A stretch of 64,000 nucleotides of DNA from Euglena gracilis (Eukaryota), in the NCBI GenBank assembly GCA_039621445.1, contig CP154954.1, forward strand, positions 6,273,425 to 6,337,424, written 5' to 3'. Each line of letters begins with the position of its first letter. The first letter of the stretch is position 1. Both the position numbers and the translations under genes were made by a program. The notes below the pieces were generated by a model. That model saw nothing but the letters and a program-made list of their open reading frames with translations, made no database searches and was not told where the DNA came from. Of the stretch, positions 4,265-40,800 are shown piece after piece.

Positions 4265-5648
4265 TTGTCCAATCGGACTTGTGGGGTGAAGCGTAGGGGG
4301 GGGGCTGAAAGAAACATGGTGTTTCTAACGCACCTTCAACAAAAAGTTGCCGTGGCGTATCCGTCTCAGAGTCAAATGTGCCTATCGGCACCAGTGCGAG
4401 ATCTCGCCGGCGGGAATGGGTGTTAGCCGATTGGCTTTCCAACAAAAGGGGTTGTGCCTGTTGGGCATGGGGTTTGCTCTATAGAGCTTGACACCGATAG
4501 GTGTGGGGGTTCCCATCGGGCGGGGGGAGGATTACTCGACACAGACACCGATAGGTGTGACACACGCGGGGAAGGAGGATGACCTGCCAAATGAGTCAAT
4601 GCTTGTGTACCCCTATGGGGTTGAGGATGCTCATTAGAGCTAGTCAATGATGCCGCAGGTTCAAGTCCTCGAAGTGAACCAATCAATGCAGCGTAGTCAA
4701 TGGGAGTTGTGCTCTGCATTTTTGAAGCAAAAACACAAAAAACAAGTGTAAATTGCGGTGTAAAATGCAGAAACAAGTACAAAAAAAAGGGAAAGTATTA
4801 AAGTAAGCAGAGACCCGAACTCTGAGGTTTGAAGCAGCGTATACTGCGAACCGTCATAGGACGTGTCCGTGCGTACAGCTTTGGCCGGAAACGGCTTGTA
4901 GTGCCTGTAATCGCCTCTAGGCGAGGCACCACTCGACCGTTTGCCATCAAAAGGATCGAAAACCTAACCTGCTACAAAGTGTATGTCCAACCTTTCCTCG
5001 CTTTCGCCCTTTGGTGCGCAAAAGGTAAAAGTTGGAGTAACAGAAAAAAATAAAATAAAAATATAAAAGTTGAAAAGCCCTTTTCCCCAATTAAGAGGCA
5101 GAGCACAAGGCAGGTGAGAAGCCCTATGGGCTACGACAAAGAAAAGTGCCAAGTGACTTGGCTGTCCTTTCAGGACTTCAAATGAAAACAAATCAAACTT
5201 GAAAATCAAGTCTTGAATGAAATACCAGAATGGAATAAAATAGAAAATACCACCAAGAACCAGAATAAGGATTGAGTATTCCTAATTCAGGCCGTTGGCA
5301 TCTGTAGGAATACCACCCAGCATAGTACTGTGTATGGGGCTCAGAGCTATATCTGGCCGTAGGCTTATACCTACATACACAGTACCATGGCCTTACGGCT
5401 GCCTGGTACACAATTGCGCCAAGGGATCCTTCCGGCTTGTTCCGTACGCATCACGCCTCTTCCTACTGCGCAAGGGGTACCTCTGGGACGTTCGCCTACC
5501 GCCACCAGAACAGTGCCAGCATTGTGGCCAAAATCACTGGCCTTGGGACAGCCACACCCTCATCCGCCTGATCGGCCCGCTCCCACGTGCCCAATCAGGC
5601 TCACCTGCATTTAGGATTACAAGTGGGACAAGTGCAAAAACCCCCTGC

Positions 5649-5702
5649 CAGGGAAGAGGAGATCTGCTCTCGTGCGGAGACGTCCCCACGCACCCTGAAC
5701 CG
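5649..5702 (+). other. Degenerate 2A-like motif (CRE-B)
   Basis: Translates QGRGDLLSCGDVPTHPEP; positional counterpart of CRE-A 13401-13454. Confidence 0.6.
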
Positions 5703-5806
5703 CCGCAAAACCTAACAACAGACCACACACACACCCCGGACGTCGGGCTGGAAAGGCCCGTCCGTCGTAGTCCGCCCAAGGGCGCCGCCGCACAAGTGGG
5801 GCAAAC

Positions 5807-5860
5807 CGCGGACGGGGTAGCCTCCCCACCTGTGGGGACGTGGAGGAGAACCCCGGACCA
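5807..5860 (+). other. Intact 2A/StopGo motif (CRE-B)
   Basis: Translates RGRGSLPTCGDVEENPGP with a full D(V/I)ExNPGP core; 16/18 identical to T2A EGRGSLLTCGDVEENPGP. Confidence 0.93.
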
Positions 5861-6894
5861 GCCAGGCGTCCGGCACACGCGTCACCCCGCGGTGCACCGG
5901 CTGCGGCAGGTGCCCGGTACCACGACCACCTGTTGTTGGGTCTCGCTCACCCGGAACGCGACGCCGCGGTGGTCATCGACCGCGCGGGGCAGGAGTCCAA
6001 TCTCAGAGGACGGACCGCGCACATCCTTGTCGTGGGCACCCCCCAATGCGACATCACCCATGTCCTACATCAAAAAATCCCGACCCTCATACACCTACCC
6101 TCGGCCTGCGAACAACCTGTCTTTGACACCATGGCAGACACCATCAACACCTACGCCCACGCACAGGTTGAGGGTAGCCTGGACCAAATTGATCTCTGAT
6201 GAGGGCATGCTGGAGGATGACATTGAAGGTGGCGGTCTTGTTGGTGAGCCAAAGGTTGTGAGATGTTCAGCTGTGTAGTGGTTCAACGGTGGTGGCTCAT
6301 GAATGGACCAGGGTCTCAGTACAGGGCCAGGGTTGGTCTTGGGTTGTAGGCCTTCCACATCAATGGCATCAACCTTGGTAGGCTTTGGTTGAGCTGGGGG
6401 TCTTGGCCTGGCAGCCTGGGATGCATTGGTATGTGACCCCTGATCTCTGACCCTGCATCTGGGTCCACCCACTTGGGACCCAATGGAACTGATAGCTGGG
6501 CAGGTCATGGTCCCACAACTGGAGAAGGTTTTGGGCAGGGAGTCCCCAGCTGGAGTGAGGGGTGTCGATGCTGCCAGAGCCTGAGTGGGAGATGTCGATG
6601 TAACCACAGCCAAGGTGGGAGATGTCGATAGAGCCACAGCACCAGAAGGTGATGGTTCAGGTTGTGGTGTAGATGGGGTCGGGGAAACTGAGGAGTTGAA
6701 GGCTGGGTGCAAACTCAACATGGTGGATGGGGATGGTACTGGTCCCAGTGCCAGAAAGAAGGAGCCAAACATCAGTGTGACTCTGAGGCATGAATGGATG
6801 GTTGCTGACTTAAGGGGGCCAATGAGAAAATTAGGCCAATAATTGCTGCAATGTTGACTGCAAAAAGGCTTTGGCAGGTCCAAAAGGCTGACAG

Positions 6895-7085: not shown

Positions 7086-7619
7086 GCACCCAGGTTGTCA
7101 ATAGTAGTTGACTGTCCGCGGCGACCACGTCGGCACGGTAGTACGGCGTCGTCTTCGTTCTCGTCGTCATGCAGCAGGCTGCCCAGTAGTCTGCAGTAGT
7201 CTGCGACGTGACGCAGGGTCTTCACAGTCCACCTCCATGTCGAGTCTCCGCTTGGTTCCAGTCTGCGTGGTCAGGGCGGCGACGATGCTCTTGGACCCCG
7301 TCTGGGGCTTTCCGGCCATGTTATGCGGAAGGCGAAAAAAAATCGACACTCAGAAATTGAACTCAGTCCACCGACCAGTGGCACAGCCTACTGGATTTGA
7401 GTGTTCAGGGGTGTCGGAGGCTATGTACAGATGGAGGAACCCCATGGATAGTCCGAGGTGTCAACTGTCGCGGGGCTCAGCGGGAGGAAAATGGGCAAGG
7501 CCCATCTTCAATATAAAGCGCAGGGGGAGGGCAGGGCGGTGCTACAAACCGTGTGGTATGGTCGTCGGCGGGTGTGCAAGAGGTGGGTTGCGGGGCGTGG
7601 GTGGGGGGGCGGTTGGTCG

Positions 7620-7696: not shown

Positions 7697-8392
7697 TTAA
7701 CGGAGTAAGTGCTTGGGTTGTAGGAGGTGGAATACCTCTCGTAGCAGGGCGATGGCCACGTTTTGGTAGATTTCCGCCTCCTTGATTTCGCGCTCAGCGC
7801 CCTGCTGCCAAAACGAGGCACGTTTGGCCACTCTGCTCAGTGTCCTGGCCGTTTCCGGTCCCATGCCGCCCCATGTCCCGAGGGCGAAAGGCGTGAAGCC
7901 CCACCATGCTTGCTGACATGGGATGTTGTATTTCTGCTTTTTGGCGTCCTCCCTCCTCTTTAGGAAGGATCTCCAGCGTTCGCGGGTTGCGGTGAGTTCT
8001 GTAGCCTGCCATCCATGGCAGACGGTGACGTCCAGCGCTGTCGGCTTCCCCTCAGACCAGCAGTCCAGAAGGGGGTCCGCCGGGCGGAGATGGCTGTCTC
8101 TGGCTGTCGGCAATGAAACTTCCTTCTGCACCCGCTGACCGCTGTTGGACAAGGTTTGAAATAGGGCGTCCTGTAAAGCGTTGTGGCGTGTTGCGAAGTT
8201 GTTCCTGCGGCAGAAGAGGAGGTGGTCGCCCTCCTTGTCCATGGGTTGGCCGAATCCTGTGCACGGCTGGCTGACGTCATTCAACACCAGGAGGCCCAAC
8301 CACCATTTCAGTCCCAGGGTGTATTCTTCGCTGGAGAAGGTGGTGTGGGAGTTGTTCGAGGGGGTAGCTGCCATCCAACCGTGTCCAAACCC
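7697..8392 (-). pseudogene. CRE-B C-terminal Zn knuckle plus restriction-like endonuclease
   Basis: LKWWLG, CTGF...DHLLFC (decayed CCHC), RHN, RPAD...ALDVTV...RREDAK, FTPFALGTWGGMG. Confidence 0.9.
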
Positions 8393-8895
8393 CGTGTGTT
8401 CAATTTCCTAAGGTTTGCATACAGTGGACCTGTTCCCCTATTTAGTGGCGGCCGCTCCATCCTTTCACAGAGGGGGACACAACAAGGCTGCCCTCTGGGC
8501 CCCATCGGGTTCGCCCTGGCGCTGCAGCCCCTGCTGGAGCGGATTACCAGGGATGGCCAGCTGCTGTGGAACAGCTGGTACCTGGACGACGGCCTCCTGG
8601 TCGGGACCCCGGACAGGATTGAACACTGCCTACGATTCCTGCTGCAAGAGTCCCACCGCGTAGGTCTCGGCCTTAACCTGCAAGCGTCATGTGGGGCCCG
8701 GAAGCAAGGAGTACACCCAGCTGTGACAGAATGCAAGTTGTCCCTTGGACACTAGGGGAGGGTATCACCGTCCTTGGTATCCCAGTTGACCTCCCTGCAT
8801 CCTCGGACACTACCAAGACGGCGTGGGAAGACGCCGCCGCCAAAATCGAGAAGGCCGCATCTACCATAACTTCCCTGACCGACGCCCAGGTAGCT
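8390..8895 (+). pseudogene. CRE-B RT core fragment, inverted relative to its flanks
   Basis: GTQQGCPLGP, WYLDDG, GLGLNL, GITVLGIPV, with a frameshift near 8685. Confidence 0.9.
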
Positions 8896-9452
8896 GCCCG
8901 GTCTACGCAAACAGTCTTGGAGGTGGCGGGGCCGCAGACCCGACGGACCTGGTGCGGATCCCCGCAGGAAGCGGCGGATGGCCTCCTTCAGTCTGTCCTC
9001 CCATTCCGGGGTGTGGTTCTCTGGAAATGGCCTAACGTGTCGCGGGAGGCGGTTGGTGTCGACGTTTATGCCGGCAGGATGCAACTTCTCCAGGGCAGCC
9101 CAGACCTCCGGGTCCTCTGGTTGGTGCGCACCCTCGGAGAGCAGTATCTGGACCGCCTTCGCGGACGCCCCTTTAGCAGTGAGGGTGCGTACCCGTCTCG
9201 TTACTGCCTCACTGAGGGCGGTCGGCTGTGTTCTGGAGCGCTTTTCCGCCCTGGTTTCCACGATGGAGTGTCGTGTCTGCGTGACCTTCAGTGCCTCCGA
9301 CAGAAGGGTGGTGTAATCCCCCTCGCGGAAAAGTTTGGCGCGCCTCAGCAGGATGGACTGCAGCTCTGCTGCCGAGGGCGGTGAAGTGGTTGACGCAGGT
9401 CGAAGGACGAGCTTTGGGAAAGGGTGTGCCCCGAACAATGCCGCGTCCGAAC
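8893..9452 (-). pseudogene. CRE-B RT N-terminal region
   Basis: FPKLVLR...LFREGDY...AKAVQILLSEG...LEKLHP...SAPGPSGLRPRHLQD, colinear with CRE-A 14050-14585. Confidence 0.9.
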
Positions 9453-10274: not shown

Positions 10275-10605
10275 CCAGCCTTTTGTTTCATCCGTGCCCA
10301 AAATTGTCATCAGCTTAGCACCCCCAGACATCGGGAAATTCCAGCCAGTTTTTTCATCCCTGGCCAACATTGTGATCAGTTTGGCAACCCCAGAGCTTTG
10401 AGAAAACCAGCCTGTTGTTCCATCCCTGACCAACTTCGTGATCATTTTTTCAACCCCAGGGCTCTGAAAAAACGAGCCTGCTGCTCCATCCCTGGCAAAC
10501 ATTATGATCAGTTTGGCAACCCCAGAGCTTTGGAAACACCAGCCTGTTGTTCCGTTCATGCCTGACATTGTGACCAATTTTCCAACCCCAGAGCTCTGGA
10601 AGCAT
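10275..10605. repeat. 66-bp minisatellite, 5 copies
   Basis: ccagcc/cgagcc starts at 10275, 10341, 10407, 10473 and 10539. Confidence 0.9.
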
Positions 10606-10884
10606 GGAATCACTTAAATGCACTTTTTGACCGTTTGTGGCCCCCCTCAGCAGGTTTCTCCATGAAGCAACTTCAGTCCCATGCCGGTTGGACAAAAGGC
10701 CCCCCCCCCTCTGGGTGCAAGTGACCCCTGCACATTGCACATGCAGCTTATCTATCACCCTGGCAAGTGGAGGCACACACCTAACAACTCCTACAACTCG
10801 ATTTGTTTCACATGACAGCCCTTTGCCTGCATCCTTTCTGCGAAGCCATCCCCTTTCACACGGGCCAACATTCATTCACGAACC

Positions 10885-11070
10885 CGCCCCCCCCCCATGG
10901 TACGTTCCAAACTCCAAAAACCAAAGTGATTACTCAAAACCTCCTGAGTTGCCCAGTTTGCTCTTCCAATGAACCCAAACAGGAACCCTCCCCCCCCCCA
11001 GTGGTATGTTCCAAACTCCAAAAACCAAAGTGATCACTCAAAACCCCCTGAGTTGCCCAGTTTGCACTTG
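10885..11070. repeat. Tandem duplication, about 103 bp spacing
   Basis: tggta(c/t)gttccaaactccaaaaaccaaagtgat...gagttgcccagtttgc occurs twice. Confidence 0.85.
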
Positions 11071-11680
11071 CAATTATCCGAAACAGGAAACCGTCCAGCA
11101 AGTTTTGCACCCATGTTTAGCAATTACCGCGCCTCTTACTCCAAAGGATTTGAAATTCACCAAAAGCTGCCTTTCTCACACCAACGAAAACTCCAGGTCT
11201 TTACCCCAGCCGATCTCACACCAGCACCCACCATCTCGTAACCTCCGAATCGCAAAGAACAACAAAATTCCCCAAACCTGCCGATCTGAGACCCACGTTA
11301 ACTCAAGGCTAAAACCCCAGCCGATCTCGCACCAACACCCTCCATTCCACCAATTTCTCAAAATGACCAAAAGCCGCCGACCACAGACCCCCGGCAACTC
11401 AGTGCTACAATCTCTGCCTGTGTCGCATTATTCCCCAGCTTCTCCGCCAAACTCAGCAACCTCAACGTGCCGCCCAACACCAAACTGCCAGCGGGCACCG
11501 AGGATGAGCAGGCTCCAGTCCCCAGCTTCTCCGCCCAAAAGAGCAACGCCAACGCGCTGCCCAATACAAAACTGCCGGCTGGTGCCCACGATGCCCACGA
11601 TGAGCAAACACCAGGCCCCCAAAAATCTGTAGGCAGGGCACTTCCCGGTGTTGCACTTCTCCAAAGTCGCTCTGGAAAAC

Positions 11681-11722
11681 CTGTTACTACAAGCAGGAGA
11701 TGTGGAGCAAAACCCAGGGCCT
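11681..11722 (+). other. Intact 2A/StopGo motif 1 (CRE-A)
   Basis: LLLQAGDVEQNPGP. Confidence 0.93.
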
Positions 11723-11877
11723 GCAAATGGGCCGTCTTCCCAAATGCCCACCGAGACAGTCTGGGACACCACAGAGCGGTTGGGGCAAATAGGGCAAATC
11801 TGGTGTTTCTGCTTACATACCACACGAGCTTCCGGTCCGGCAAGCAACCACAAAAACTGTCCCAGCATAGTGCTCGA

Positions 11878-12122
11878 TGTGTGTTGTGTGGCTCCAGCAT
11901 TCGCCACCAAGGTTTCGAATCTCTGCGCTTGCACCGCTGCCAACAGCATGCCGCTCGTGCCTCCACTCAATCCCCTTTTCACGTCCTAGACACTTCACGC
12001 TGGTCCTCGGAAGAGCTGGGCCAATGGAAAATGGAACCTGGTGGAAGGCAGACTGCGACGTGTGCCGGCGGCACTGGGTAACTTGTAACCTTGCAATACT
12101 ACTCAGGCATGAATCACTGTGC
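11878..12122 (+). pseudogene. Two putative Zn-finger motifs after 2A motif 1
   Basis: CVLC...LRLHRC and CDVC...LLRHESLC, in different frames. Confidence 0.45.
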
Positions 12123-12356
12123 CAACCACGCCAGTGGGACCCCGACTACGACGCCGATCCAAGCCCCCTACCCTCCCCACCATCATCACAGACTCCCCCA
12201 CCCGACAACCACAACTATAGCACTGGAACACAACAACAGCAACAGCATCAGCAAATGCAAACACAGCCACAGGCACACCCTCATCAACATTCACAATACC
12301 ACAGCTGTTCTAGCCAGCCCCAAAGGCTCTGCCACCACACTCCCCAAATACCGTCA

Positions 12357-12410
12357 GGCAGAGGCGCAGCCATTTTGACTCACGGGGACGTGCAAAAGAA
12401 ACCAGTACCG
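12357..12410 (+). other. Decayed 2A-like motif 2 (CRE-A)
   Basis: GRGAAILTHGDVQKKPVP; three single-base changes (CAA/GAA, AAA/AAC, GTA/GGA) from GDVEKNPGP. Confidence 0.7.
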
Positions 12411-12518
12411 GAAGAACACAGAACAACAAACACCTCGCCCAAACACACCCTCCTCGGACCACAGTCTCGACCAAGGCCATATCCCTATCGCAACCTCACC
12501 CCACCAGCGAGGCTCTCG

Positions 12519-12910
12519 GACTACATGCTCGACCCCCCATGGGTCAACTGGGTTCTGCAATCACTGCAGGTGCCCCCAGAACATCACCACACAGTGGATG
12601 CATTCGCGAGCTGCCACAACGCGCAACTTCGTGAGTAATGGGACGAAAACATAGATTGCTTCACCAAGGACTGGTGCACAGACAAGGCCTTGTGGATGAA
12701 CCCACCATTCAATCCAAATCCCAGCCGTTACTCAGCGTCTGCTCACCGCCGGGGGACACGCAGTGTTGCTGGCGCCAGCTTGGTCCCAATCCCTGCGTTC
12801 TCTACAACAACTTTGTACGCGCACGGCAATCCTCCCACCAGTTCCCCTATTTCGCGTGAGGGGGACAGTACTGATGCCTGCACCACCCTGGAGAACACAT
12901 GCTTTCTCTG
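12519..12910 (+). pseudogene. Dam-like N6-adenine DNA methyltransferase domain in CRE-A (copy 1)
   Basis: DYML...TVDAFASCHNAQLRE*WDENIDCFTKDWCTDKALWMNPPF (NPPF at 12699-12710), then after a frameshift VLLAPAWS...PVPLFRVRGTVLMPAPPW. Confidence 0.85.
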
Positions 12911-13227
12911 TCTCCCGCCCAAATCCCTCTCCCAGAGACCCCCTAGCACCCCTACGACTCTCGCACTCTCCACCTGCTTCCTCTGCCATCAGCTCAGATA
13001 CCCCTCCGCCAGACCCGGGCACTCCTCCACGACCCTCTCACCCACCGCCAGTACTTCACTACAGAAATGACTTTCCATTATGCCGATCAACCGATTTGCC
13101 CCCTTTGACATCCTGGGCCTTCGCACAAAATAACGCAAAATGGATCTCCTTCGTACACTTCGCGGGCCGCGTTTTCGTCCTCGAAAGATGATTCCTTTGG
13201 GACATCAGATTCGGCCCCCCCTGGCCG

Positions 13228-13266
13228 TGCAGTTCATGTGGAGGGAAGCACTGGTTCTGGGATTGC
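13228..13266 (+). other. CCHC Zn-knuckle-like motif (C-x2-C-x3-H-x4-C)
   Basis: CSSCGGKHWFWDC; CRE-B counterpart CQHCGQNHWPWDS. Confidence 0.7.
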
Positions 13267-13400
13267 CACCCTCAGCAGCGTGCCACAGCATCCTTGCATC
13301 CTCTGCGCCACACAGCACGTCCATCCCCACCATTCGTGTCCTGCCAGTGCAAGGTGCCTGCGACCATTCAGTCCTACCCAACAGAACCTGCACAGACTGA

Positions 13401-13454
13401 CAGGGCCGCGGCTCACTCATGACCTGTGAAGACATCGAAGAAAAACCAGGACCA
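13401..13454 (+). other. Decayed 2A-like motif 3 (CRE-A)
   Basis: QGRGSLMTCEDIEEKPGP. Confidence 0.8.
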
Positions 13455-13620
13455 CTCCGATCCCCACCTTCCTTGCGTGGCCCCCTCCATCACTGCGGAC
13501 CCCCGTGCACACCCCTACGGCCACTACACCTCAGCCCACAACTGAACGAACTTCGAGCCTGCCAAAACGAGAAATAGACCCTACTTCAGAAAAAGTCCCC
13601 GCGGACAGCGCCCGAAGGGC

Positions 13621-13674
13621 ACTGGGAGAGGTTCACTCCTCACCTGCGGAGACGTGGAAGAAATCCCAGGACCC
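13621..13674 (+). other. Near-intact 2A motif 4 (CRE-A), same frame as RT
   Basis: TGRGSLLTCGDVEEIPGP, 16/18 identical to T2A; ATC is one base from AAC. Frame matches ORF 14056, with two intervening TGA stops. Confidence 0.9.
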
Positions 13675-14055
13675 GCAGCACCCACGACGGCGCAAAACAA
13701 GTCATGCAAACGCAAGGAACGATCCAGCTCCGCCTCCACTCGATGACCAGCAGACAACGCAGACACCACTGACCGCCTGAACGACCTAGCCCACCCATGG
13801 GAAGGCAGAGACGCAGCAACCGTAGCAGACTCGGCGGGCAAAGAAAGCAACCTGAGAAACAACGCCAGATGCGGGATAACCATCAGTGCGAGACCTTGCC
13901 CAATTGAGGACATCCTACAGCTCCGCGTGAACACCATCCTGCATGTCCCCGCAACTCTCCAAACCACGATATGAGACATCCTTGGAGCCGCCCTCGACGC
14001 ATACACAAGCAACCCAACCGACGACGGGCTCTTTGCAATCCTGGCTTTCCCCAGA

Positions 14056-16909
14056 TTGGTGCTCCGCACAGTAAATGCGAAAGGTACACACGCCCCCGAT
14101 GAACTCGCCTCGGCAATTGGAAGACGAAACGGCCTGTTCCGATCCGGCGAGTACGGCACGTTACTGACAGAGCTCCACTCAGCACAGAAATCCGCAATTT
14201 CAAACGCCACAGCGCTAATTAAAACCAGAGCGGAAAAACGGGCAAGAACAGAACCCTCCAGCCTACCAGACCGAACCCTGCAGAGAGTCAAAACGCTCAC
14301 AGGGGAAGGAGGCCCAGCCAAAGCACTCCAACTATTACTCTCCGAAGGTTCCCACAAACCACAGGACCCACAGGTGTGGAACAAACTGGAAGCCCTTCAC
14401 CCAAACGGTAAGCCGGTGGACCTGAACAACCTCCCCGCCAAGATCACACCGTTCCAGGATGGACAATCAATCTCGTGGGAACCAATCCTGCATGAGGCAA
14501 TCCTGAAATTCCCTCGGACTTCATCCCCAGGACCTTCTGGGCTCCGCCCTGTTCACCTGCAAGACGCAATCAAGCGCCCAGGCAGAGGAGCACAGCTAAT
14601 TACAGCACTCGCCAAAATGACCAACACCTGGGTGAATGGGGACCTCCCTGCTGCACACTCCCCGTTCTGGTGCGGCGCCAACCTGACTCCGCTCAGAAAA
14701 AAGGATGACGGTGTCAGACCGGTGGCAGTGGGTGAGACCATACGGAGGTTGATTGGCAAAGCCCTCTTGGTAACAGGCACGGCAAAAGACCAGGTCAGCA
14801 AGCTCCAAACCACACAAGTCGGCGTTGGGGTCACAAATGCAGCAGAATCAGTGGCAGTAGGCTTTCAGCACCTGGTGCACAAACTGGACCCAGCCGGCAA
14901 TTGGGCAAGTTTGCAACTGAACTTCTCCAACGCCTTCAATTGCATAGACAGGTCACACCTGCTGCTCGAGGCAACAACCAGAACGCCCTGCCTCTTCAAC
15001 TACCTCAATTTCGCGTACAAGAACCCTGCCGCCCTATTCTGCGCTGGCAAAATCCTCTGGTCCCGCTGCGGAACTCACCAGGGCTGCCCACTTGACCCAG
15101 TCGGCTTCTGCGTTGGTCTGCAACCTCTGGCAGAGACCATCAGAAACAAAGCGGAGCTACTCTGGAGTTCGTGGTATCTGAATGATGGTATCATGGTAGG
15201 CCAACCCGACAAACTGCAGAAAGTCATCTCCTTCCTCCAGGGCGAAGCCACACGCCGCGGACTCCAACTGAACCTCCGAAAGTGTGTGGTATGGGGGCCA
15301 GCTGGCAACCTAATCACCTCCGCACCAGATATGACCGTCATACCATGGCAAGAACATTCAGGGATCACGTATTGGGAGTTCCAGTGGATTTATTCGGGGG
15401 GGGGGAGCGGGCACTCAACTGTAAGAGGCCGCCAGTCGTGTGGGGATCAGGGCCGCAGGGTTGGTACCACTACCCCCCCCCCTTATTTGAGCACACCTCC
15501 GGAGTGCCAAACGGTAGACTGGGGGGGGGGGTAGTGGGTAGTCGGCCGACTAGTCGGCCGACCAATTGGGTAGTCGGCCGACTAATTGGTCGGCCGACTA
15601 GTCGGCGGACCAATTCCCACAAGCCACCAAAAGACAGCTGAAGCGTGGGTTGCGGCCACACGGAAAATTGAACACGCAGCAGACATTGTAACCCAAATGA
15701 CAGATGCCAAAATTTCTCATCACCTGCTACGCTCCTGTCTTGACGGTTGCAAAGTGAACCACCTGCTCCGCGCCTCCAACAGCTACCTCTGTAAAGAAGC
15801 AGTCACCCGATCTTCGGAAACCATTCTTCAAGCTTTTGAGAACGTCGTTGGAGTGCCTCTGAACACCACACAGAGACTGCAAGAAGCACTGCCACTCACC
15901 CTCACACAACCAAGCAGCGGAACGTACAGCAGCCCTTTGTGCCTTTTACACAGAAGGATATCAGAGAATCGGTTTGCCTCAGTATGCAACAGACCCAGTG
16001 GCAGATCTCATTGAACCACCCCTCAAAAACTTGTGTGCTGCCCTGCCCAACCACTCGACAGCCCCGAGACTGCTGGGGAATCTGGCCCACACCAAGACCT
16101 CCGGAAAAATGAACAATCCCAAAAATGGTGGTCCACAGAAATAGGAAAAACCACAATGGACAACCTCATCAACCAATGCAAACCACGAGACCAGGCCTGC
16201 CTTTTGGAACAATCCTCAGGAATTGGACATGGTTGTATGGTCTCTCCACCGTCCCCCGCCCTGCACACTGTCTTCTCAAGTGACGAGTACTGTCTTGGCC
16301 TCAAATGGTGGCTCGGAATGCCCATCATAGACGACGACACGCAGAAATGCCAAGGCTGCCCCACTGGACAGGGAAGGGGACCACCTCATCTGTTGCCCAC
16401 GAAACAACTTCACTGTCAGACACACGGCTGTTCAGGATGCAATTTTCACCCTCCTATCCTCCACAGGCCAAGGTGTCCAGAAGGAAGTCACAATCCCCAA
16501 TGCCCCCGATGCCAATCTGCGCCCCGCTGATCTCTTACTGGCATGCTTCCAGGATTGCAAGCCCACAGCCCTCGGCGTCACGATCTGTCATGCATGGCAG
16601 ATCCCAGAACAAAGTACCTCACGGGAACGATGGAGGTCTTTTCTTCGACGCAAAGAATCTGCCAAGCACACTAAATATTACGTCACCTGCCAAAATGCAG
16701 GTTGGTCTTTCACCACCTTGGCAATGGGCACATGGGGAGGCCTCGGCCCAGAGGGCGCCCGCTTGCTCGGTCGCATCTTCAAACGAGCCACGGCGACGCA
16801 AGAAGGAGAAATAGGGGAACTCAAGCAGGCCGAATGCTATCAGGCCGTCGCTGTCGCACTCACCCGCCAAATCTGGCAACTCCTCCGAGTGAAACACACC
16901 GTCCGCTAA
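14056..16909 (+). pseudogene. CRE-A RT, thumb and RLE; inactivated
   Basis: SSPGPSGLRPVHL, RPVAVGETIRRLIGK, LNFSNAFN, HQGCPLDP, WYLNDG (Asn at two catalytic Asp positions); insertion near 15393-15615; LKWWLG, LRPADL, MGTWGGLG; several frameshifts. Confidence 0.93.
15393..15615. other. About 220-bp insertion in CRE-A RT with G/C runs and a palindromic array
   Basis: Interrupts LGVPVDL...PTSHQKT, which is contiguous in CRE-B (LGIPVDLPASSDTTKT). Contains repeated gtcggccgac palindromes at 15538-15615. Confidence 0.75.
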
Positions 16910-20955: not shown

Positions 20956-22103
20956 TCAGGTAATGCCTCTTCTTCTTTTTCGGTACGTTTATAATAAAAA
21001 AGAGGCACCCCTTTCCCTTCAACTTGGGGTTCCCGATACTCCTTCAAAAAACTCCTATGAGCTTTTGTCTCCACCCCAGGTTTCATTTCGATTACATAAC
21101 TTCGTTCCCCTTCTCTACCCTTCACGACCCCAGGTCCCACCCACCTAGAGTCAAGCTTCTCACCCGACCCTTCGGGTCTCCTACACCAAACCATCATCCC
21201 CACCTTTAGGGGTTCCATTTCTTTCCTCCCCTTATTTATCCTTGCCACCTCCTCCTCAATGCTTTTTGTTGAGTATCCTAGCCACCCTCCCATCAATGTC
21301 TTGCATCGTTCGGAAAAAATCTACCGAATCCTCACATTCTTTGGGTGGTTGGTAGGGTACCCCTGCTAATGGTCGTTCCCTTCCATGTAGAATTTCATAT
21401 GGGCTGAACCCGCTTTCCCCCTTTACGTCGTGAATTCGGTCCACAGCTTGGGGTAAAGCTTCAACCCAATTAATTTTTTCTTTCACGTACAAATTTCTCA
21501 ACACCTCCATTACCTGTTGTCCGGCTCTCTCAATCCTCCCGTTTGCTTGGTGGTGGTATGCTTGGGAATATGCTTGCCTAATCCCCAAAAGTGCACACAT
21601 GTTTTTCCACCAAGTTCTTGTGAAATGGCTCCCTTGGTCACTTGAGATGACCGAGGGAACCCCAAAAGGCCTCCACTGACTTTTCACCATTTCCTTAGCC
21701 AACTTGGCACCGGTTAATCCCTTGTCCTTGCATGCAACCCCCACAATCCATCCCGAATGCCTATCCACACAAAGGGCTAGGGTGTCATACTCCCCCCCAT
21801 CGTGTAAAACCCTTGGCATTCGAAACAAATCGATGGCAACACTTATCATTAGTGCAGGGGGTATGGGTGTGGACTCGATCGGTCCTTTCAAACTCTTCCC
21901 CCTCACACTCGCTTGGCATGTGAAACAATTTTTGCTGCACTTTTGGTTGAGTTGTTTTGCAGCCTTTTCATCAGCCCAAACAAAACGGATTGCAATGTGT
22001 TTCCAACTTTTTCAGGGCCAACGTTCCCCAAAAACTCGTGAAGTTCCTGAATCACCAAGTGTTGAAAACTTTCAGGCACACACAACTTTTCTTCAAAAAG
22101 CAA
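20956..22103 (-). pseudogene. pol: Gypsy-B integrase
   Basis: LHEFLGN...CFTC, VAIDLF, VISSDQGSHF, HQANGRIERA, FSPYEILHG, KLDSRWVGPG (GPY/F-like). Confidence 0.93.
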
Positions 22104-22519
22104 TTGGCCATTTAGCTCTTTGAAGCCCGTTGGCCAAATTGAATCGCCTTTGGTAGCTACCCATTTTTCTTTCCATGTGGGGCATTGGGAATATGCTTCC
22201 CCCCCATACGGGCTTAATATCCTTAGGGGTCGTACTTGGCAGGGCGTCCCCCACTTCCATACGAGTGTCCCCCCTCGAACTTTCAGCCGTCTCCGGGACA
22301 GGGGTCGTCTCCCCCCCCCACTTTCTCATCCCAAAAATGAACTCGTTTCTTTTCTTTCCTGGGCCATTGTGAGTGGGTGTCCACAGGGGTGTCTTTTCCT
22401 CCTGGGTCTACCCCACCCTCGGTTCCCCTCCTTGTGCACTCGCCTTTTTCCTCCTCAGGTGTTACGTTTTTGCCACTACAGGTTGTCACCCCCCGTATCC
22501 AGGCATTACGTAAATTGGG

Positions 22520-23283
22520 CTGGTTTTTGATTCTTATCTCCAAACACTTTTTTTCCTCTTCTTTTTCCTCCCGGATAAAATTTTCCATTTCATCCTTGTC
22601 TTCGGCTGACCCATGCTTACTTATATCCCTTAGGGCCTGTGAATCTGGGTATGCCCACCGACTAATAATGTCGGCTATGGTATTTTCTTTACCCGGGATA
22701 TATCCCACCGTCAAATCATACTTGGAGAAAATTTGGTGCCATCTCGCCCTCCTCCCAACCGGACCACTGGGGGTGTCCAGGACTTCCCTTGTCCAAGACT
22801 CCAAACTTTGGTGGTCGGTTAAAACCAAAACGGGTTGCAATCCAATCCAACTCTCCCATTTTTGTAGTGCCAAAATTATGGCATATGTCTCCAACTCCCT
22901 GGGGGTCCATTTTCTTTGCCCCTCGGTCAATTTTCGAGACATAAAAGCCACTGGCACAGTTTTTTTCTCAATCACATCTTGGGCTGTGGGCCCCCCTCCT
23001 TCATTTGCTCTAACGTTGCCCCCACGGCGTACCCACTGGCATCTACCCTTAGCACAAAGGGTTTATCTGGGTCTACCCGTTGCAACATTAGGCCCGAACA
23101 CAACCATTTTTTCAGCTCCTCAAAAGCTTTTAAATCCTCCCCATCAAATTCCACAGGTTTTCGACTTCCTTTCTTTCCCACCTCCCTAGGGACTTTCAAT
23201 TTGTCTTGCAGCCGGGCAGCTACTTCCGCATACATGTGAACGTATGCATTGTAATAATTTGTGAATCCCAAAAAGGCTCTCAA
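22520..23283 (-). pseudogene. pol: Gypsy-B connection domain and RNase H
   Basis: FLGFTNYY, VLRVDASGYAVGATL, VAFMSRKL, RELETYAI, VLTDHQSL, YIPGKENTIADIISR. Confidence 0.93.
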
Positions 23284-24021
23284 AGCCGTAATTGTTTTTG
23301 GAACCTCCCACTATTCGATCGCTCGTAGCTTACCCGGTGCTGGCCTCCTAGTCCCATTTCCTAAAATCTGTCCACAAAATTAAACCCCCTCCACAAAAAG
23401 TTTGGCTTTGAATTCATCAGCCACCAAAAGTTCTGTTTTGAGCACTTCCAACACTCTCCTCAAATCTTTTTCATGTGCCCCCACTAGATCCTCCCCTTCC
23501 CCGACCGTTGTCCACACCAGTATGTCGTCTATGTCCCCTGTGGCGATATCCCTTACTGGTGTCAAACGGTCATCGATCATTTGCTGAAATTGTTGGGGGG
23601 CATTTGTCAAACCCATTACGTTCACCCTCCACTGAAAAATCCCTTTGGGGGTGAAACAACACGTTATGGGTCGACTTTCTGGGTGTGAAGGTTGTTGGTG
23701 AAAAGCTTGATTTGAATCAATGATCGAAAACATTTGGTTTGCACCATGTTTGACAAAAATGTCTTCAGTTTTGGGTAAGGGGTAGTTGCATCGCCTTGTT
23801 TGGCTGTTTGGGCCCCTGAGGTCCACCACCCCCCTCCAAGGAGAATCGTTGGATTTTTTTGGAACTGGAAAAGTCTGGGAGAGCCATTCAGAATTTTTGG
23901 CTGTGGCTGGCTCAATGTATTTTTTGTCAAGCCAGTCTTGGGTGATTTTTTCAAGTGCCTCTTTCCTCTCACCATACATGAAAAAAGGCTTCTGTCTGGT
24001 TGGCTTTGCCCCCTCCTTCAA
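23284..24021 (-). pseudogene. pol: Gypsy-B reverse transcriptase
   Basis: WRGVVDLRGPN, YPLPK, MGLTNAPQQFQ, GDIDDIL (decayed YIDD). Confidence 0.92.
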
Positions 24022-24439
24022 AGGTATGTATGCATAACCATATTGTCCTCTTTCGGGGGGGGTCTGGAAATGGCGATGACTGAAATACTGTCCCCCGGTA
24101 ATCTTCCAAAACTTGTTCCCTCAACTTGACTACCCGTTCCTCCTCTTTTTTGTCCTCCCCCTCCCTTGCAATTATCATTCGGTTGACAACTTGCACTGGG
24201 GGGTCACTTCCTTCCAAATTTGTGGCAACCTCCCCCAAGTCCTCGTCACTCAAAAATTGCAAGTCCTGGTCCAACCCTTCCAATGGCAAACAAAGACCAA
24301 GTTTTTGCAACCCAAACGAAGACCCGTCCGCCACAGTCACATTGTCCACTGAAACATTTGTGTCATCCCTGAAATTTTGCGGACCCCTCCGTCCTTCAAC
24401 ACCCCGCAAAAAAATCAGGTCGGGGCTGTCTTTCACCAA

Positions 24440-24800
24440 TGCCTTGTGGTGTGGAAAAATTCCCAGTTTTGCCTCCGCCAACCATGGATAAGAAAGAATG
24501 GCATCAACTTTGATGTTTGCCTCATAAAATTCAACCTCATATTCCACAAACTCAATTTCCCTTTCCTCATTCGAATTTTGTTGAAGGATCATTTTCACCT
24601 TAGCACATCTGCTCCCCCCCGCCAAAGTTTGCCCATTGGCTGTTTCAAACCTTAACGGGTCCTTAGCAGGATACATTAGGTGGTCCCCTATCAACCCTTG
24701 TCGAATGAGGTTTGCCTCAGCCCCCGTGTCAATCAAAATTCTGGCCGTTTTTTCCTCCCCATTTGCCAACCGTATCTGTGTTTTTAACAGCAGTTGTCTG
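24440..24800 (-). pseudogene. Gypsy-B aspartic protease
   Basis: ARILIDTGAEANLI (DTG at 24722-24730), FETANG, DAILSYPWL. Confidence 0.9.
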
Positions 24801-24916
24801 TCCTCCCCAAGTTTCTTTGCTCCTCCCCGAGTGTTTGTCCCTCTCAACATTCTTTTTTTCAGCCGCACCAATTTTTTCTTTCCTGGGGCTGCCCCCCCCT
24901 GGGAGGGTTGCCTTCT

Positions 24917-25303
24917 ATCAATCAACAAGGCCCACACCCCCCAACGGGTACCCCTCAAAATCCACCCATCAGCCTCAAACAACTTTGTCCCCTTGGGAAA
25001 ATAAATCTTTTTGACAGCAATAGCCACCAGATTTCTCACCCACCTCCTATTCCAGTCTGGGCAAATACAAATTGCCCGACAATTGAAATTTTGCAATTTT
25101 TCAGCCACCTCAGGCCACAAAGTCCAGGGGGGGTTCATCCACAACGTTTCCTCCGCCCCCCATTCCTTTTTCGTGGCATCATTATCCCCCCCATAAAACT
25201 TTTCACACCTGGCATTTTGGCTGGTTGCAAAACAATCCCGTTACGCCTTAACCCGAAATTCATTCTCAATTTCCTCCATACAAACTTTCCTAACAGCATA
25301 ATC
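24917..25303 (-). pseudogene. Dam-like N6-adenine DNA methyltransferase domain in Gypsy-B
   Basis: DYAV...KA*RDCFATSQNARCEKFY...EWGAEETLWMNPPW (NPPW at 25124-25135)...ICPDW; in frame with PR downstream. Confidence 0.85.
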
Positions 25304-27228: not shown

Positions 27229-29573
27229 CCTCGAACAGTTGAGCAACAAAAAGGGATTTGCCCCCCAAACCGGTTTGGTAACACAAGGGATTTTGTTATT
27301 TTGGGGCCCTCGAAAGGTTGAGCAACAAAAAGGGATTTGCCCCCCGAACCTGTTTGGTAACACAAGGGATTTTGTTATTTTGGGGCCCTTGAACAGTTGA
27401 GCAACAAAAAGGGATTTGCCCCCCAAAACGGTTTGGTTACACAAGGGATTTTGTTAATTTGGGGCCTTCGAACAGTTGAACAACAAAAAGGGATTTGCCC
27501 CCCAAAACGGTTTGGTAACACAAGGGATTTTGTTTTTTTGGGGCCCTCGAACAGTTGAGTAACAAAAAGGGATTTGGCCCCCAAAACGGTTTGGTAACAC
27601 AAGGGATTTTGTTAATTTGGGGGCCCTCGAACAGTTGAGCAACAAAAAGGGATTTGCCCCCCAAACCGGTTTGGTAACACAAGGGATTTTGTTATTTTGG
27701 GGCCCTCGAACAGTTGAGCAACAAAAAGGGGTTTGCCCCCCAAAACGGTTTGGTAACACAAGGGATTTTGTTATTTTGGGGCCCTCGAACAGTTGAGCAA
27801 CAAAAAGGGGTTTGCCCCCCAAACCGGTTTGGTAACACAAGGGATTTTGTTATTTTGGGGCCCTCGAACAGTAGAGCAACAAAAAGGGGTTTGCCCCCCA
27901 AAACGGTTTGGTAACACAAGGGATTTTGTTATTTTGGGGCCCTCGAATGGTTGAGCAACAAAAAGGGATTTGCCCCCCAAACCGGTTTGGTAACACAAGG
28001 GATTTTGTTATTTTGGGGCCCTCAAATGGTTGAGCAACAAAAAGGGGTTTGCCCCCCAAACCGGTTTGGTAACACAAGGGATTTTGTTATTTTGGGGCCC
28101 TCGAACAGTTGAGCAACAAAAAGGGGTTTGCCCCCAAAACGGTTTGGTAACACAAGGGATTTTGTTATTTTGGGGCCCTCGAATGGTTGAGCAACAAAAA
28201 GGGATTTGCCCCCCAAACCGGTTTGGTAACACAAGGGATTTTGTTATTTTGGGGCCCTCGAATGGTTGAGCAACAAAAAGGGATTTGCCCCCCAAACCGG
28301 TTTGGTAACACAAGGGATTTTGTTATTTTGGGGCCCTCGAACAGTTGAGCAACAAAAAGGGATTTGCCCCCCAAACCGGTTTGGTAACACAAGGGATTTT
28401 GTTAATTTGGGGCCCTCGAACAGTTGAGCAACAAAAAGGGATTTGCCCCCCAAACCGGTTTGGTAACACAAGGGATTTTGTTATTTTGGGGCCCTCGAAC
28501 AGTTGAGCAACAAAAAGAGATTGCCCCCCAAAACGGTTTGGTAACACAAGGGATTTTGTTAATTTGGGGGCCTCGAACAGTTGAGCAACAAAAAGGGATT
28601 TGCCCCCCAAACGGGTTTGGTAACACAAGGGATTTTGTTATTTTGGGGCCCTCGAAAGGTTGAGCAACAAAAAGGGATTTGCCCCCCAAAACGGTTTGGT
28701 AACACAAGGGATTTTGTTAATTTGGGGCCCTCGAACAGTTGAGCAACAAAAAGGGATTTGCCCCCCAAAACGGGTTGGTAACACAAGGGATTTTATTAAT
28801 TTGGGGCCCTCGAACAGTTGAGCAACAAAAAGGGATTTGCCCCCCAAAACGGTTTGGTAACACAAGGGATTTTGTTATTTTGGGGCGCTCGAACACCACC
28901 CCCCCCCCAAATTGTCCCCCCCACCCCATATTGTCCCTCAGTCCCGGCCGACGGGGGGGTTTTTTGGCTCGGCCAATGAAATTTGTTTGCTACCCCCATA
29001 TTGTCCCCCCCCCCCCATGTTGTCCGGTCGGGCCTGCCGGGGGGAGGTCGGTGGGACAACATGGGGGGGGGGGGTTGAAGTTGAGCAACAAAAAGGGATT
29101 TGCCCCCCAAACCGGTTTGGTAACACAAGGGATTTTGTTATTTTGGGGCCCTCGAACAGTTGAGCAACAAAAAGGGGTTTGCCCCCCAAAACGGTTTGGT
29201 AACACAAGGGATTTTGTTATTTTGGGGCCCTCGAACAGTTGAGCAACAAAAAGGGGTTTGCAGCCCAAAACGGTTTGGTAACACAAGGGATTTTGTTATT
29301 TTGGGGCCCTCGAATGGTTGAGCAACAAAAAGGGATTTGCCCCCCAAACCGGTTTGGTAACACAAGGGATTTTGTTATTTTGGGGCCCTCGAACAGTTGA
29401 GCAACAAAAAGGGGTTTGCCCCCCAAAACGGTTTGGTAACACAAGGGATTTTGTTATTTTGGGGCCCTCGAATGGTTGAGCAACAAAAAAGGATTTGCCC
29501 CCCAAAACGGTTTGGTAACACAAGGGATTTTGTTATTTTGGGGCCCTCGAACAGTTGAGCAACAAAAAGGGAT
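27229..29573. repeat. 79-bp satellite, about 27 copies
   Basis: Unit cctcgaacagttgagcaacaaaaagggatttgccccccaaaccggtttggtaacacaagggattttgttattttggggc. Confidence 0.97.
28894..29078. mobile_element. About 185-bp MITE-like insertion inside the satellite
   Basis: Splits one unit (ctcgaac | agttgagc). Ends are imperfect inverted repeats: ccccccccc...ttgtccc and gggacaa...ggggggggg. Confidence 0.6.
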
Positions 29574-30532
29574 TCAACTACTTAGGCGGCCGAATTCGCA
29601 CTTAAGCTTTTTTCCTTTGGATTTGCGCAATTGCGCAAATGTACCATTTTTTTGTAACCCCTGGGACCTTGTACCCTGACCGCTGAAAAAAAATTTTTGA
29701 TCGCGAACGGAACTCGTTAGGGCTGGGCAATTCGAACCCCTTCAAATACAAAGTCATTCTGTACCTCCCCCTCTCCACAGCTGCTTTCTTTCACGCTGCC
29801 CGCGGGGCACCCACCCACACCCACTTCTACCCCACAGCTGCCCGCGGCAAGCACCTGGCCAGATCTGGCGGCGTACAGTTTTTGAGTTTTGGACGGTCCG
29901 AATGTGTGCTGTGGATATCAATGGTTTGGCTGACGATGAAATCAGACACCCTTGATGAATTTGAGAATTATTGCGAGGGTGTGTTGGGTGCCACCAATTG
30001 TGAAGTACGATGGAATTGAGTGTGTCCGAAGAGGGGTGTGACACCGCCTGTCTTGAACAAGGATGAAGAAACGCCCGGTGAATTGGAACCTTCTAATTGA
30101 TGTCCAACAGAAATTTATTTATGGCGCATTGCACACTTGCGCAATTGCGCGCATCAAAAGATTGTTTCCTCAATTATGAATTCAGTTGCTGAGAAGGGGT
30201 TTGGGACGCCCCAGATTGTGTCAGTGATGAAAAGTGGTACCGTTTTACTTGCGCAATTGCGTGCACAATTTGTTGCTTTTTGTTGTGAGGCTAACCAGTG
30301 GGTGCCAGTAGGCAGTCGCCACAAACCAATGCTGCGCAATTGCGCACATATGCATCATGGTGGAAGCTTGTGCTATCCGGGTTGCGTGTGCAGATATGCA
30401 CTGCTAGCATGTCGTTTTGTAGCCCATGGCATGCTGTACATAACCACAATAGTGGATTATTTTCCTGGAAATCCAGTACGAAATTTCCTCCAAAATATTT
30501 TGGGCAAATACCCTTGGAGATTTCGCGTCCCG

Positions 30533-31770
30533 GTTATGTACCCCCCGGGGTCCCATTAGGTATCCCCCTGGGGGGTTTGGCGGGGGTACATAATGGGGGG
30601 GGGATGGTAGCTCACTGTCGTAACACTTTTTCTAAATAATTTCCCAAAAAAATGCTCAAAAATCGACGTTTTTGGGACGTTTTCAAAAAGTGATATTTGG
30701 CAAATGTGCTGAAAATTGACCATTTATTGCAAACATCCAAAAAGTTGCCAAAAATGACCCCTTTTGGGCTGTTCGGTCGGGTCTGGGAGTGGGACCTGGG
30801 TACCCCCCCCATTGTGTACCTCCCCCACATTACGATCCCCCCCCCATTATGTACCCCCCCCATTAGGTACCCCCTGGGGGGGAGGTACATAATGCTGGGG
30901 GATGGTAGCTCACTGTCATAACACTTTTTCTAAAGAATTTCCCAAAAAATGCTCAAAAATCGACGTTTTTGGGACGTTTTCAAAAAGTGATATTTGGCAA
31001 ATGTGCTGAAAATTGACCATTTATTGCAAACATCCAAAAAGTTGCCAAAAATGACCCCTTTTGGGCTGTTCGGTCGGGTCTGGGAGTGGGACCTGGGTAC
31101 CCCCCCCATTGTGTACCTCCCCCACATTACGATCCCCCCCCATTATGTACCCCCCCCATTAGGTACCCCCTGGGGGGGAGGTACATAATGCTGGGGGATG
31201 GTAGCTCACTGTCATAACACTTTTTCTAAAGAATTTCCCAAAAAATGCTCAAAAATCGACGTTTTTGGGACGTTTTCAAAAAGTGATATTTGGCAAATGT
31301 GCTGAAAATTGACCATTTATTGCAAACATCCAAAAAGTTGCCAAAAATGACCCCTTTTGGGCTGTTCGGTCGGGTCTGGGAGTGGGACCTGGGTACCCCC
31401 CCCATTGTGTACCTCCCCCACATTACGATCCCCCCCCATTATGTACCCCCCCCATTAGGTACCCCCTGGGGGGGAGGTACATAATGCTGGGGGATGGTAG
31501 CTCACTGTCATAACACTTTTTCTAAAGAATTTCCCAAAAAATGCTCAAAAATTGACGTTTTTGGGACGTTTTCAAAAAGTGATATTTGGCACATGTGCTG
31601 AAAATTGACCATTTATTGCAAACATCCAAAAAGTTGCCAAAAATGACCCCTTTTGGGCTGTTCGGTCGGGTCTGGGAATGGGACCTCCCCATTGTGTACC
31701 TCCCCCCCATTATGTACCTCCCCCCCAATTTCGGCCTCCCGGGGGGAGGTACATAAGGGGGGGGGGGTGG
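30533..31770. repeat. About 296-bp tandem repeat, about 4 copies
   Basis: gatggtagctcactgtc starts at 30603, 30901, 31198 and 31494. Units contain inverted ttatgtac(c)n / (g)ngtacataa motifs. Confidence 0.95.
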
Positions 31771-39769: not shown

Positions 39770-40800
39770 TCATCCATGTGAACATCCTCGAACCCGTTTG
39801 GGCAGTGCCACCCTGTAGCGGCCACTTTTGCCAACACGTTCGAGAATTTCACAGGGCCCGATCCAGAGGGGGTCTATTTTGGAAGCTTGCATACGGATTC
39901 GGTTATTCCGAACCCATACGCGATCACCAGCACTATAGCCAGGTGATTTGAATTCTTGCAAAAATTTATTTCTCTTTTGAGAATGGATATCAGTAATGCG
40001 TTTTTGAACAGTAGTTCTGAGAGACCCTACTTCAGAGAACCATGTCTCACAGGTTACGTAACTTCGAGCTGGTCTCTCTGATGATATATCACCAATCGCC
40101 GCCGGGTCTCGCCCAAAAACGATTTTATATGGGGATTGCGGAAAAACTAAACCCGGTAGGGTGTTTATATAAAAGAGGGACCATGGCAAAACCTGGACCC
40201 AGGCCTGGCGCGAGTCAGCCAGTGAGAGGCGGAGCATATTTACAACAGCCTTCACTGCTGCCTCGGCGCGGCCATTGCCCTTCGGGCGATATATAATGGA
40301 AAAATGTTGTTCGATTCCCAGTAAACCACATAGGGTTGTGAAGAATCGGGAAGAGATCAAATGATCTTGATCACTGACAATCTCATTCGGCAAGCCCATT
40401 AGGCAGACACACTTCTCCATAAATATCTGCGCTAAAATTTGCGCGGTCAACCCTGCCTTTTGGCATGGAATGGCTACTATGTAACCACTCAAGCGACAGA
40501 CAACTACAAAAACATAATCGTAAATTTTGCCGTCTGATCCTTAGCAAGGTTCTAATTCGAGAAAATCCATGCAGAGGGACGTAAAAATGTCAGGGGGTAC
40601 GGGGAAAAAATCAAGCGCACCAGGGGGGGTACCTCTGCGCGGTTTCACGGCTTGACAAATTTGCACCATTGCGAAATTTGCAAGCAGCGCGAATGCAAAT
40701 CTATTTCTTTCAGGGTTGTACAATACCTGCGACCCACCAAAGAAAGATGTTTGGGGGCCCCAGGGTGAACTTGGTTGTGTTAACACAAAAGTACTTCATC
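39770..40800 (-). pseudogene. pol: Gypsy-A integrase
   Basis: [45 protein letters not shown]; stops and frameshifts. Confidence 0.92.

Follow-up and report, generated by a model that had tools for sequence, protein, structure and literature searches.

The stretch of Euglena gracilis DNA analysed here (64,000 nucleotides in all, referred to as the window) is a direct duplication of 41.6 kb, in which positions 1-22374 are repeated at 41621-64000 with 99.7% identity and a period of about 41,620 bp, so that every motif and feature described below occurs twice. The duplication may be a recent segmental one or an artefact of the assembly. The duplicated segment is repeat-rich and crowded with decayed retroelements, among them two diverged elements, A and B, each of which carries a peptide of the 2A type next to its reverse transcriptase (RT). 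Rfam and tRNA scans of the window detected no RNA genes, whether rRNA, tRNA or spliced-leader, and with these scans empty the 41.6-kb repeat was rejected as an rDNA unit.

Several other repeats share the window with A and B. Two Ty3-like elements are located on the minus strand, at 21259-25240 and at 39773-43408 (the latter corresponding to 1-1788 in the first copy); they show the order Dam methyltransferase, RT, RNase H and integrase ('DAM-LTR' type), with stops present. The Dam of these elements shares 26-33% identity with the Dam of the LINE family to which A and B belong, and no 2A motif was found on the minus strand that carries them. A long tandem array of units of about 79 bp, whose copies are 94-97% alike, occupies 27229-29574, and a second array with units of about 300 bp occupies 30534-31725. 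Moreover, three stretches (5200-5593, 7170-7563 and 15444-15837) reach a summed contig depth of approximately 16,000-40,000 in run X1, compared with 10-70 nearby; these are high-copy short repeats, to which some RNA reads also correspond.

Paired 2A-like motifs in elements A and B

In element B, the RT-proximal peptide RGRGSLPTCGDVEENPGP is encoded at 5807-5860 (+) and preserves the canonical motif, with a change from L to P at position 7 of the peptide and an in-frame stop 17 codons upstream. The corresponding site of element A, TGRGSLLTCGDVEEIPGP at 13621-13674 (+), is the last of four in that element (2A-4) and reads IPGP, the Asn of NPGP being replaced by Ile. Both are identical at 16 of 18 positions to the reference T2A peptide, EGRGSLLTCGDVEENPGP (PMC12338488 Table S1), and are indeed the near-twins of T2A that the initial annotation had described. 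The 41.6-kb duplicate places second copies on the plus strand at 47429-47482 (B), 55244-55297 (2A-4 of A) and 53293-53346 (2A-1 of A). The full class A motif, GD(V/I)ExNPGP, is matched by the B site at 5807-5860 and by 2A-1 of A at 11669-11722; the A site at 13621-13674 fails at the Asn, and the upstream partners of the two RT-proximal sites fail at several positions. The strict form of the motif, D[VI]ExNPGP, occurs twice per 41.6-kb unit, against 1.2e-4 occurrences expected from the six-frame amino-acid composition, and did not occur in any of 200 shuffled sequences, on which grounds a chance origin was rejected.

A further GRG-type motif had been claimed 35-55 codons upstream of each site. 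Such a motif is present at that distance in both elements, but it is degenerate and out of frame with its partner. In B, it reads QGRGDLLSCGDVPTHPEP (5649-5702, +) and is separated by 104 nt from the main motif, which lies in another frame; in A, it is 2A-3, QGRGSLMTCEDIEEKPGP, at 13401-13454 (+), with a stop codon directly before it and a non-conserved spacer of 166 nt (13455-13620, +) between it and 2A-4. Spacers of 166 and 104 nt put the paired motifs in different frames in both A and B. The two spacers cannot be aligned with each other, in agreement with the earlier statement that the spacer peptides are not conserved.

The segment after the motif (LAHPWEGRDAATVADSAGKESNLR in A, LAHPERDAAVVIDRAGQESNLR in B), described beforehand as a shared LAHP..RDAA..AG.ESNLR stretch, is homologous between the two elements and aligns also to their relatives. 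Within the motif itself, the 18 codons of A and B share 15 residues and 37 of 54 bases, and the reported difference in codon usage is thereby confirmed (Ser, for example, is TCA in one and AGC in the other). The corresponding pN is 0.16 and pS 0.74, while the 97 aligned codons of the flanks share 29 residues, with a pN of 0.51 and a pS of 0.69. The saturation of synonymous sites indicates that the A and B lineages are old, and the low pN of the motif compared with its flanks indicates that selection acted on the peptide, as had been proposed from inspection of the two copies.

Element A (approximately 11669-16906) is colinear with residues 804-2111 of a relative, P0069, from the 2A/Dam region through to the RT and the restriction-like endonuclease (RLE). 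Four 2A sites were once present, two of them (2A-1 and 2A-2) upstream of the pair first noticed. Thus 2A-1 (ALENLLLQAGDVEQNPGP, 11669-11722, +) is intact and canonical, and is followed by a small, decayed zinc-finger module (11723-12353, +) with the C..C...H...C pattern of the inter-2A modules of relatives, by the degenerate 2A-2 (SGRGAAILTHGDVQKKPVP, 12354-12410, +), by a module of the Dam-type N6-adenine methyltransferase (12411-13400, +), by the degenerate 2A-3 and the IPGP-bearing 2A-4, and finally by the RT-RLE protein region (13675-16906, +). The methyltransferase module has a frame change near 12713; the window ORFs of this region give no Pfam PF05869 match at E<=1e-3, and the assignment comes from the NPPF motif and from alignment to the PF05869-bearing parts of relatives. 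The RT-RLE region is colinear with relatives and is damaged at several points. Two in-frame stops lie close to its N-terminus, YxDD has become YLND, the LDVT of the RLE reads LGVT, the frame changes near 16360, and the RT is interrupted at 15385-15616 by an insert of about 230 bp, one of the high-copy short repeats noted above, which one run X1 contig skips. The RT ORF of the element spans 13975-15531; public protein collections contain relatives of it, the majority derived from environmental assemblies. Tandem repeats of 66 bp and of about 103 bp, at 10275-10604 and 10877-11092, lie just upstream of 2A-1 and may represent the 5' region of element A.

Element B retains, at 5427-6190, the C-terminus of its Dam, both motifs and the first 100 or so residues of the RT protein, the remainder being scrambled. 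In the alignment with P0069, the Dam end (5427-5648, +) and the 2A-like motif jointly correspond to residues 1023-1116, and the N-terminal segment of the RT-RLE protein occupies 5861-6163 (+), with homology ending near 6163-6190. The scrambled pieces comprise an inverted C-terminal part of the RLE (7721-8401, -) with GDH..C, RH, E, RPAD and LDVTV motifs, an RT core (8390-8895, +) corresponding to P0069 residues 1534-1703 (RVT_1, E=1.2e-5), and an inverted N-terminal domain of the RT (8896-9450, -) corresponding to P0069 residues 1220-1401.

Around neither RT-proximal site does the window hold a continuous ORF, stops and frame changes being present at both. Both copies are dead pseudogenes, and nothing is expressed or functional at the locus. 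As judged from the sequence, neither locus can express a 2A, because of the in-frame stops and frame changes between the pairs, the IPGP of A and the scrambling of B. The change from N to I in 2A-4 would be expected to abolish skipping, given that a change from N to H in NPGP already lowers 2A activity in L1Tc and FMDV (PMC3708506). The RNA runs X21, X22 and X24, with about 5-6% of each read, gave zero depth over 5594-6381 and 13080-14261, and a sequencing-run search for the stretch returned no RNA run among the runs listed. In the DNA contigs of run X1, one-base length variants are found between the paired motifs of both A and B, as well as at other frame breaks of A; since these variants bring the paired motifs into one frame, less damaged copies, or a strain possessing them, exist.

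The family of relatives and its 2A sites

The elements that host the motifs are non-LTR retrotransposons with a C-terminal RLE. RVT_1 matches are obtained in A, in B and in the relatives, which read YLDDG where A reads YLND, and the RT is followed by a block of C..C..GDH..C, RH, E, RPAD and LD(V/I)T motifs, conserved in 20 aligned relatives and in the piece from B, which we take to be the signature of the R2-type restriction-like endonuclease. A profile of 12 relatives (A1) matched R2 proteins in the PDB at 1.5e-13 and LINE-1 ORF2p at about 1e-4; a PDB search with the single sequence P0070 gave weak RT matches only, and a search of the ESM Atlas with P0002 gave unnamed RVT_1 clusters only. Pfam scans of 34 relatives detected no Exo_endo_phos (APE), no rve (integrase) and no Phage_integrase (tyrosine recombinase). 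The RLE block, the R2 profile matches and the absence of these three domains from the scans together place the elements in the RLE-type non-LTR class. A DIRS-like element had also been considered, on account of the Dam, and was rejected, as the ORF ends in the RLE block and has neither tyrosine recombinase nor RNase H. The CRE label used in the initial annotation is unproven, the only hint to that clade being the name '132 kDa protein' given in its source to a distant relative, P0063.

The combination of PF05869 (Dam) and RVT_1 in one predicted protein, with 2A sites in between, occurs in 11 of the 20 long relatives scanned. When the proteins of relatives are split at NPG|P, those that are intact present a polyprotein composed of an N-terminal part, a zinc-finger module, a Dam and an RT-RLE, with 2A sites at the three junctions in the complete arrangement and 1-4 sites in all. 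The zinc-finger-like module (C..C...H...C) has 90-170 residues and the Dam about 290-370, and the last 2A product, which consists of an N-terminal domain, the RT and the RLE, has 992-1300. A continuous ORF on both sides of the 2A occurs in relatives such as P0069, P0093 and P0100, and no protease domain was detected in the relatives scanned. In P0092 and P0100, the first 2A-bounded product contains an SLBP-type histone-hairpin RNA-binding domain (PF15247, E about 1e-20), and it is possible that this product is an ORF1-like RNA-binding protein; P0092 also has W-containing variants of the 2A (WV..L...GD[VI]E.NPGP).

Among the 255 relatives collected, 28 proteins contain 46 strict D[VI]ExNPGP sites, at 1-4 2A sites per protein, in which G10, D11, E13, N15, P16, G17 and P18 are invariant and which are preceded by GRG in 36 cases. 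In most members of the family the register is GRG-x-x-LL-[ST]-C, which exceeds that of T2A by one residue, and three relatives are also identical to T2A at 16 of 18 positions. Of the 26 relatives whose sequence extends 620 residues or more upstream of YxDD, 18 have a strict 2A located 420-640 residues before that motif, the other eight being the most distant ones. The motif, which according to the initial annotation should be conserved across family members, is so conserved within one clade. An exhaustive phmmer search with P0070 yielded 1115 cluster representatives at E<=1e-30; among the best 150 of these 1115, a 2A is found at the site in 7 of the 37 representatives with sequence beyond the homologous site, and hence the trait is clade-specific and not general in the wider superfamily.

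The same distribution is seen in a FastTree tree of 65 rows of known 2A state, from which 54 rows without N-terminal coverage were excluded. All 22 rows with a 2A fall in one clade of 27 rows (SH-like support 98), and its sister clade of 31 rows has none; this tree requires 4 changes of the 2A state, versus a mean of 18.6 when shuffled, and none of 500 shuffles reached so low a number. The five rows without a 2A inside the 27-row clade start at a Met near the site, so their lack of a 2A may be due to truncation in gene calling. Element A, and element B represented by three pieces with a row each, lie inside the best-supported sub-clade of 2A-bearing rows, in a starred set of 11 rows in each of two builds. 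Furthermore, a scan of metagenome DNA with alignment A1 returned 63 loci, all of them distant RT relatives at 25-38% identity; four of these have a 2A motif, in no case beside a family RT.

Two isolated matches may be added. P0107, a member of the sister clade without 2A, has a weak match to an OTU cysteine protease (E=0.005) upstream of its RT, and in this clade a protease or deubiquitinase module may take the place of the 2A. The family profile also matched, at its 2A positions, the C-terminal 34 residues of PDB chain 7p2p_B, a signal-peptidase subunit construct, where the match is probably to the remnant of a 2A tag from the expression construct.

Proposed processing at the 2A sites and alternative readings

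On their sequence and setting, the two T2A-like peptides are native, positionally homologous sites of a retrotransposon family. Direct observations comprise the motif and where it lies, its conservation across the clade, the constraint at the peptide level and the order of the domains; with a probability of roughly 85%, the peptides are relics of functional StopGo sites which, in a clade of RLE-bearing non-LTR retrotransposons, would have split the product of one ORF. In class A 2As, the nascent peptide in the exit tunnel keeps the Gly-Pro bond from forming, the upstream chain is set free with NPG at its end, and translation resumes at the Pro (PMC3708506; PMC12338488). By analogy, the product of the single long ORF of intact members would be divided at NPG|P during translation, giving separate proteins, namely an N-terminal part (in some members with the SLBP-type RNA-binding domain), a zinc-finger protein, the Dam methyltransferase and an RT-RLE of about 1000-1300 residues, and the family thus appears to make three to five proteins per ORF by ribosome skipping. 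The last, RT-proximal 2A would free the methyltransferase or a short spacer, leaving an RT-RLE that starts at proline. Ribosome drop-off at each site would lower the amount of downstream product, and each site, single or doubled, would also set the ratio between upstream and downstream products.

The initial annotation had gone further, proposing that a tandem pair is maintained before the RT. The peptide was under selection and the pair recurs, but it is not fixed. The functions suggested for it in that annotation, a tuning of RT output or the freeing of the RT N-terminus, are hypothetical, and an equivalent idea has been published for L1Tc (PMC3708506). A second 2A-like site no more than 80 residues upstream of the RT-proximal one was found in both window copies and in 7 of the 23 relatives with enough upstream sequence (P0003, P0005, P0039, P0074, P0090, P0093 and P0095), with a spacing of 20-47 residues. 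The seven lie dispersed across the tree, and P0073 and P0074, although sisters and almost the same in sequence, do not share the doublet; together with the unconserved spacers, this indicates a pair that is recurrent and unfixed. The doublet may provide redundancy, leading to complete separation, or a stronger brake on RT synthesis, or it may be a by-product of module loss. The third of these, according to which the loss of a module or a local duplication leaves two boundary 2As around a junk spacer and the pair as such is not selected, is a serious possibility whose chances we place somewhat under one half: besides the unconserved spacers and the scatter over the tree, the segment between 2As in relatives is either the zinc-finger module of about 90-170 residues or a remnant of 20-47. 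However, both members of the pair are fully canonical in four of the seven doublets (P0003, P0005, P0074 and P0093), which argues against a second site in mere decay.

It has also been considered whether the sites are mainly translational attenuators, which by drop-off ('protein reduction') would keep the RT-RLE low, the doublet acting as a stronger brake. A down-regulation of products downstream of the 2A has been proposed for L1Tc (PMC3708506), and according to a preprint (10.64898/2026.06.17.732966) many eukaryotic 2A-like peptides reduce protein abundance instead of skipping cleanly, 59% of the ORF2p-associated ones tested having reduced it; the doublets before the RT, in relatives and in both window copies, fit with such a brake. 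The sites, however, lie exactly at the boundaries between zinc finger, Dam and RT-RLE, as separation predicts, and the doublet differs between so close a pair of sisters as P0073 and P0074, which makes attenuation as the main role unlikely; attenuation and separation are, in any case, not mutually exclusive.

Origins outside the family have very little in their favour. The peptide GRGSLLTCGDVE(E/S)NPGP is that of the 2As of Thosea asigna virus and Providence virus (PMC12338488 Tables S1, S2), but an endogenised fragment of a tetravirus- or picorna-like RNA virus is highly improbable and was rejected for this locus, where no RdRp, capsid or other viral domain lies nearby and the flanks are Dam and RT-RLE, which form one ORF in relatives. 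Least probable of all, and likewise rejected, is the remnant of a laboratory T2A cassette, by vector contamination or a transgene in the assembly: against the 16/18 identity of both peptides to T2A stand the mere 37 of 54 bases common to the copies, with differing Ser, Arg, Gly, Glu and Pro codons, the embedding of each copy in homologous retrotransposon sequence with Dam upstream and RT-RLE downstream, the same motif at the same place in relatives from environmental assemblies, the fact that DNA runs from 15 studies contain the stretch, and the absence around the motifs of flanking reporter or selection genes and of near-identical nucleotide copies.

Comparison with known systems

Sequences of the 2A type in non-LTR retrotransposons were reportedly described by Heras in 2006. 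StopGo sequences of the 2A type are found in L1Tc and Ingi elements of trypanosomes, and in Rex1, L2, CR1, Crack and Ingi elements of sea urchin, amphioxus and molluscs (Odon 2013, PMC3708506). These elements resemble the window family in having an in-frame class A 2A (GD[VI]ExNPGP) in the N-terminal part of the RT-bearing protein, and the roles proposed for 2As of the L1Tc type, that is, separating products and limiting RT output, are those proposed here. Elements of the L1Tc type are, however, APE-type, whereas the window family has an RLE and no APE in Pfam scans; the family further differs from them in having up to four sites per ORF, with Dam and zinc finger as separate 2A-bounded products.

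Two large catalogues of 2025-2026 include thousands of eukaryotic 2A candidates (PMC12338488; 10.64898/2026.06.17.732966), the second of them with ORF2p-like proteins and a Dualen/RandI case, and a preprint of September 2026 lists 580 RT-associated contigs with predicted 2As, as well as tandem 2As in viruses (10.64898/2026.09.24.754024). The peptide 'RGSLLTCGDVESNPGP' is recorded in the first catalogue from MGnify proteins without lineage (PMC12338488 Table S2), and some of these entries may belong to the window family. As the occurrence of 2As in retrotransposons is established in print, the present finding adds a member and not a new principle.

Although 2As in retrotransposons are already known, the layout of Dam, zinc finger and RLE with up to four 2As, and often a doublet ahead of the RT, appears to be undescribed. 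The literature searched yielded no account of an RLE-type LINE that combines Dam with several 2As, a provisional result, as preprint supplements lay outside the search; the supplementary data of 10.64898/2026.09.24.754024 and 10.64898/2026.05.21.726589 may list family members. Tentatively, and at little less than an even chance, the family would be an undescribed clade of RLE-LINEs in which StopGo, at up to four sites that are sometimes doubled, is the sole device for processing the polyprotein and delivers Dam, zinc finger and RT-endonuclease in graded amounts. If true, no RLE-type LINE family before it would have been organised as a 2A polyprotein with multiple products, and the DAM-bearing retrotransposons would gain a third class, 'DAM-LINE'. 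The family would also be a test case for a LINE that sets the ratio of accessory proteins to RT, and its natural, deeply diverged variants of the T2A type, doublets included, could serve studies of the 2A mechanism as well as tool development.

As regards the methyltransferase, the DAM-TEs (10.64898/2026.05.21.726589) share with the window family a retrotransposon-encoded Dam of the PF05869 type, and the Dam-RT-RNase H-integrase elements of the window are of the kind described for them. The adenine methyltransferase of DAM retrotransposons has been linked to active chromatin marked by 6mA (10.64898/2026.05.21.726589). The classes that we found named in that preprint are DIRS and LTR only, whereas the Dam of the window family is 2A-bounded within a non-LTR polyprotein of the RLE type; its main text does not contain the term '2A peptide' and mentions LINE only for Euglena RTs (10.64898/2026.05.21.726589).

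With regard to viruses, T2A of Thosea asigna virus and PrV-2A1 of Providence virus have the peptide in common with the family, but they belong to capsid or replicase polyproteins of RNA viruses, and 18 residues are too few to tell homology from convergence. The tandem 2As of picornaviruses, dicistroviruses and totiviruses include, as here, back-to-back or close 2As before one coding region and further 2As that partition the polyprotein (PMC11512398; 10.64898/2026.09.24.754024). Those tandem sites are viral, whereas the present ones belong to a cellular retrotransposon in which the doublet is limited to 7 of 23 relatives.

Finally, for the R2, CRE, NeSL, R4 and Hero elements, no report of a 2A was found in the literature searched. 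They have the same order as the window family, with the RT followed by a CCHC-like motif and a PD-(D/E)xK-like block (RPAD...LDVT), and the best structure matches of the family are to R2. In their classical form, these elements have a single ORF that encodes a single protein (PMC3708506), unlike the window family with its several 2A-bounded products.
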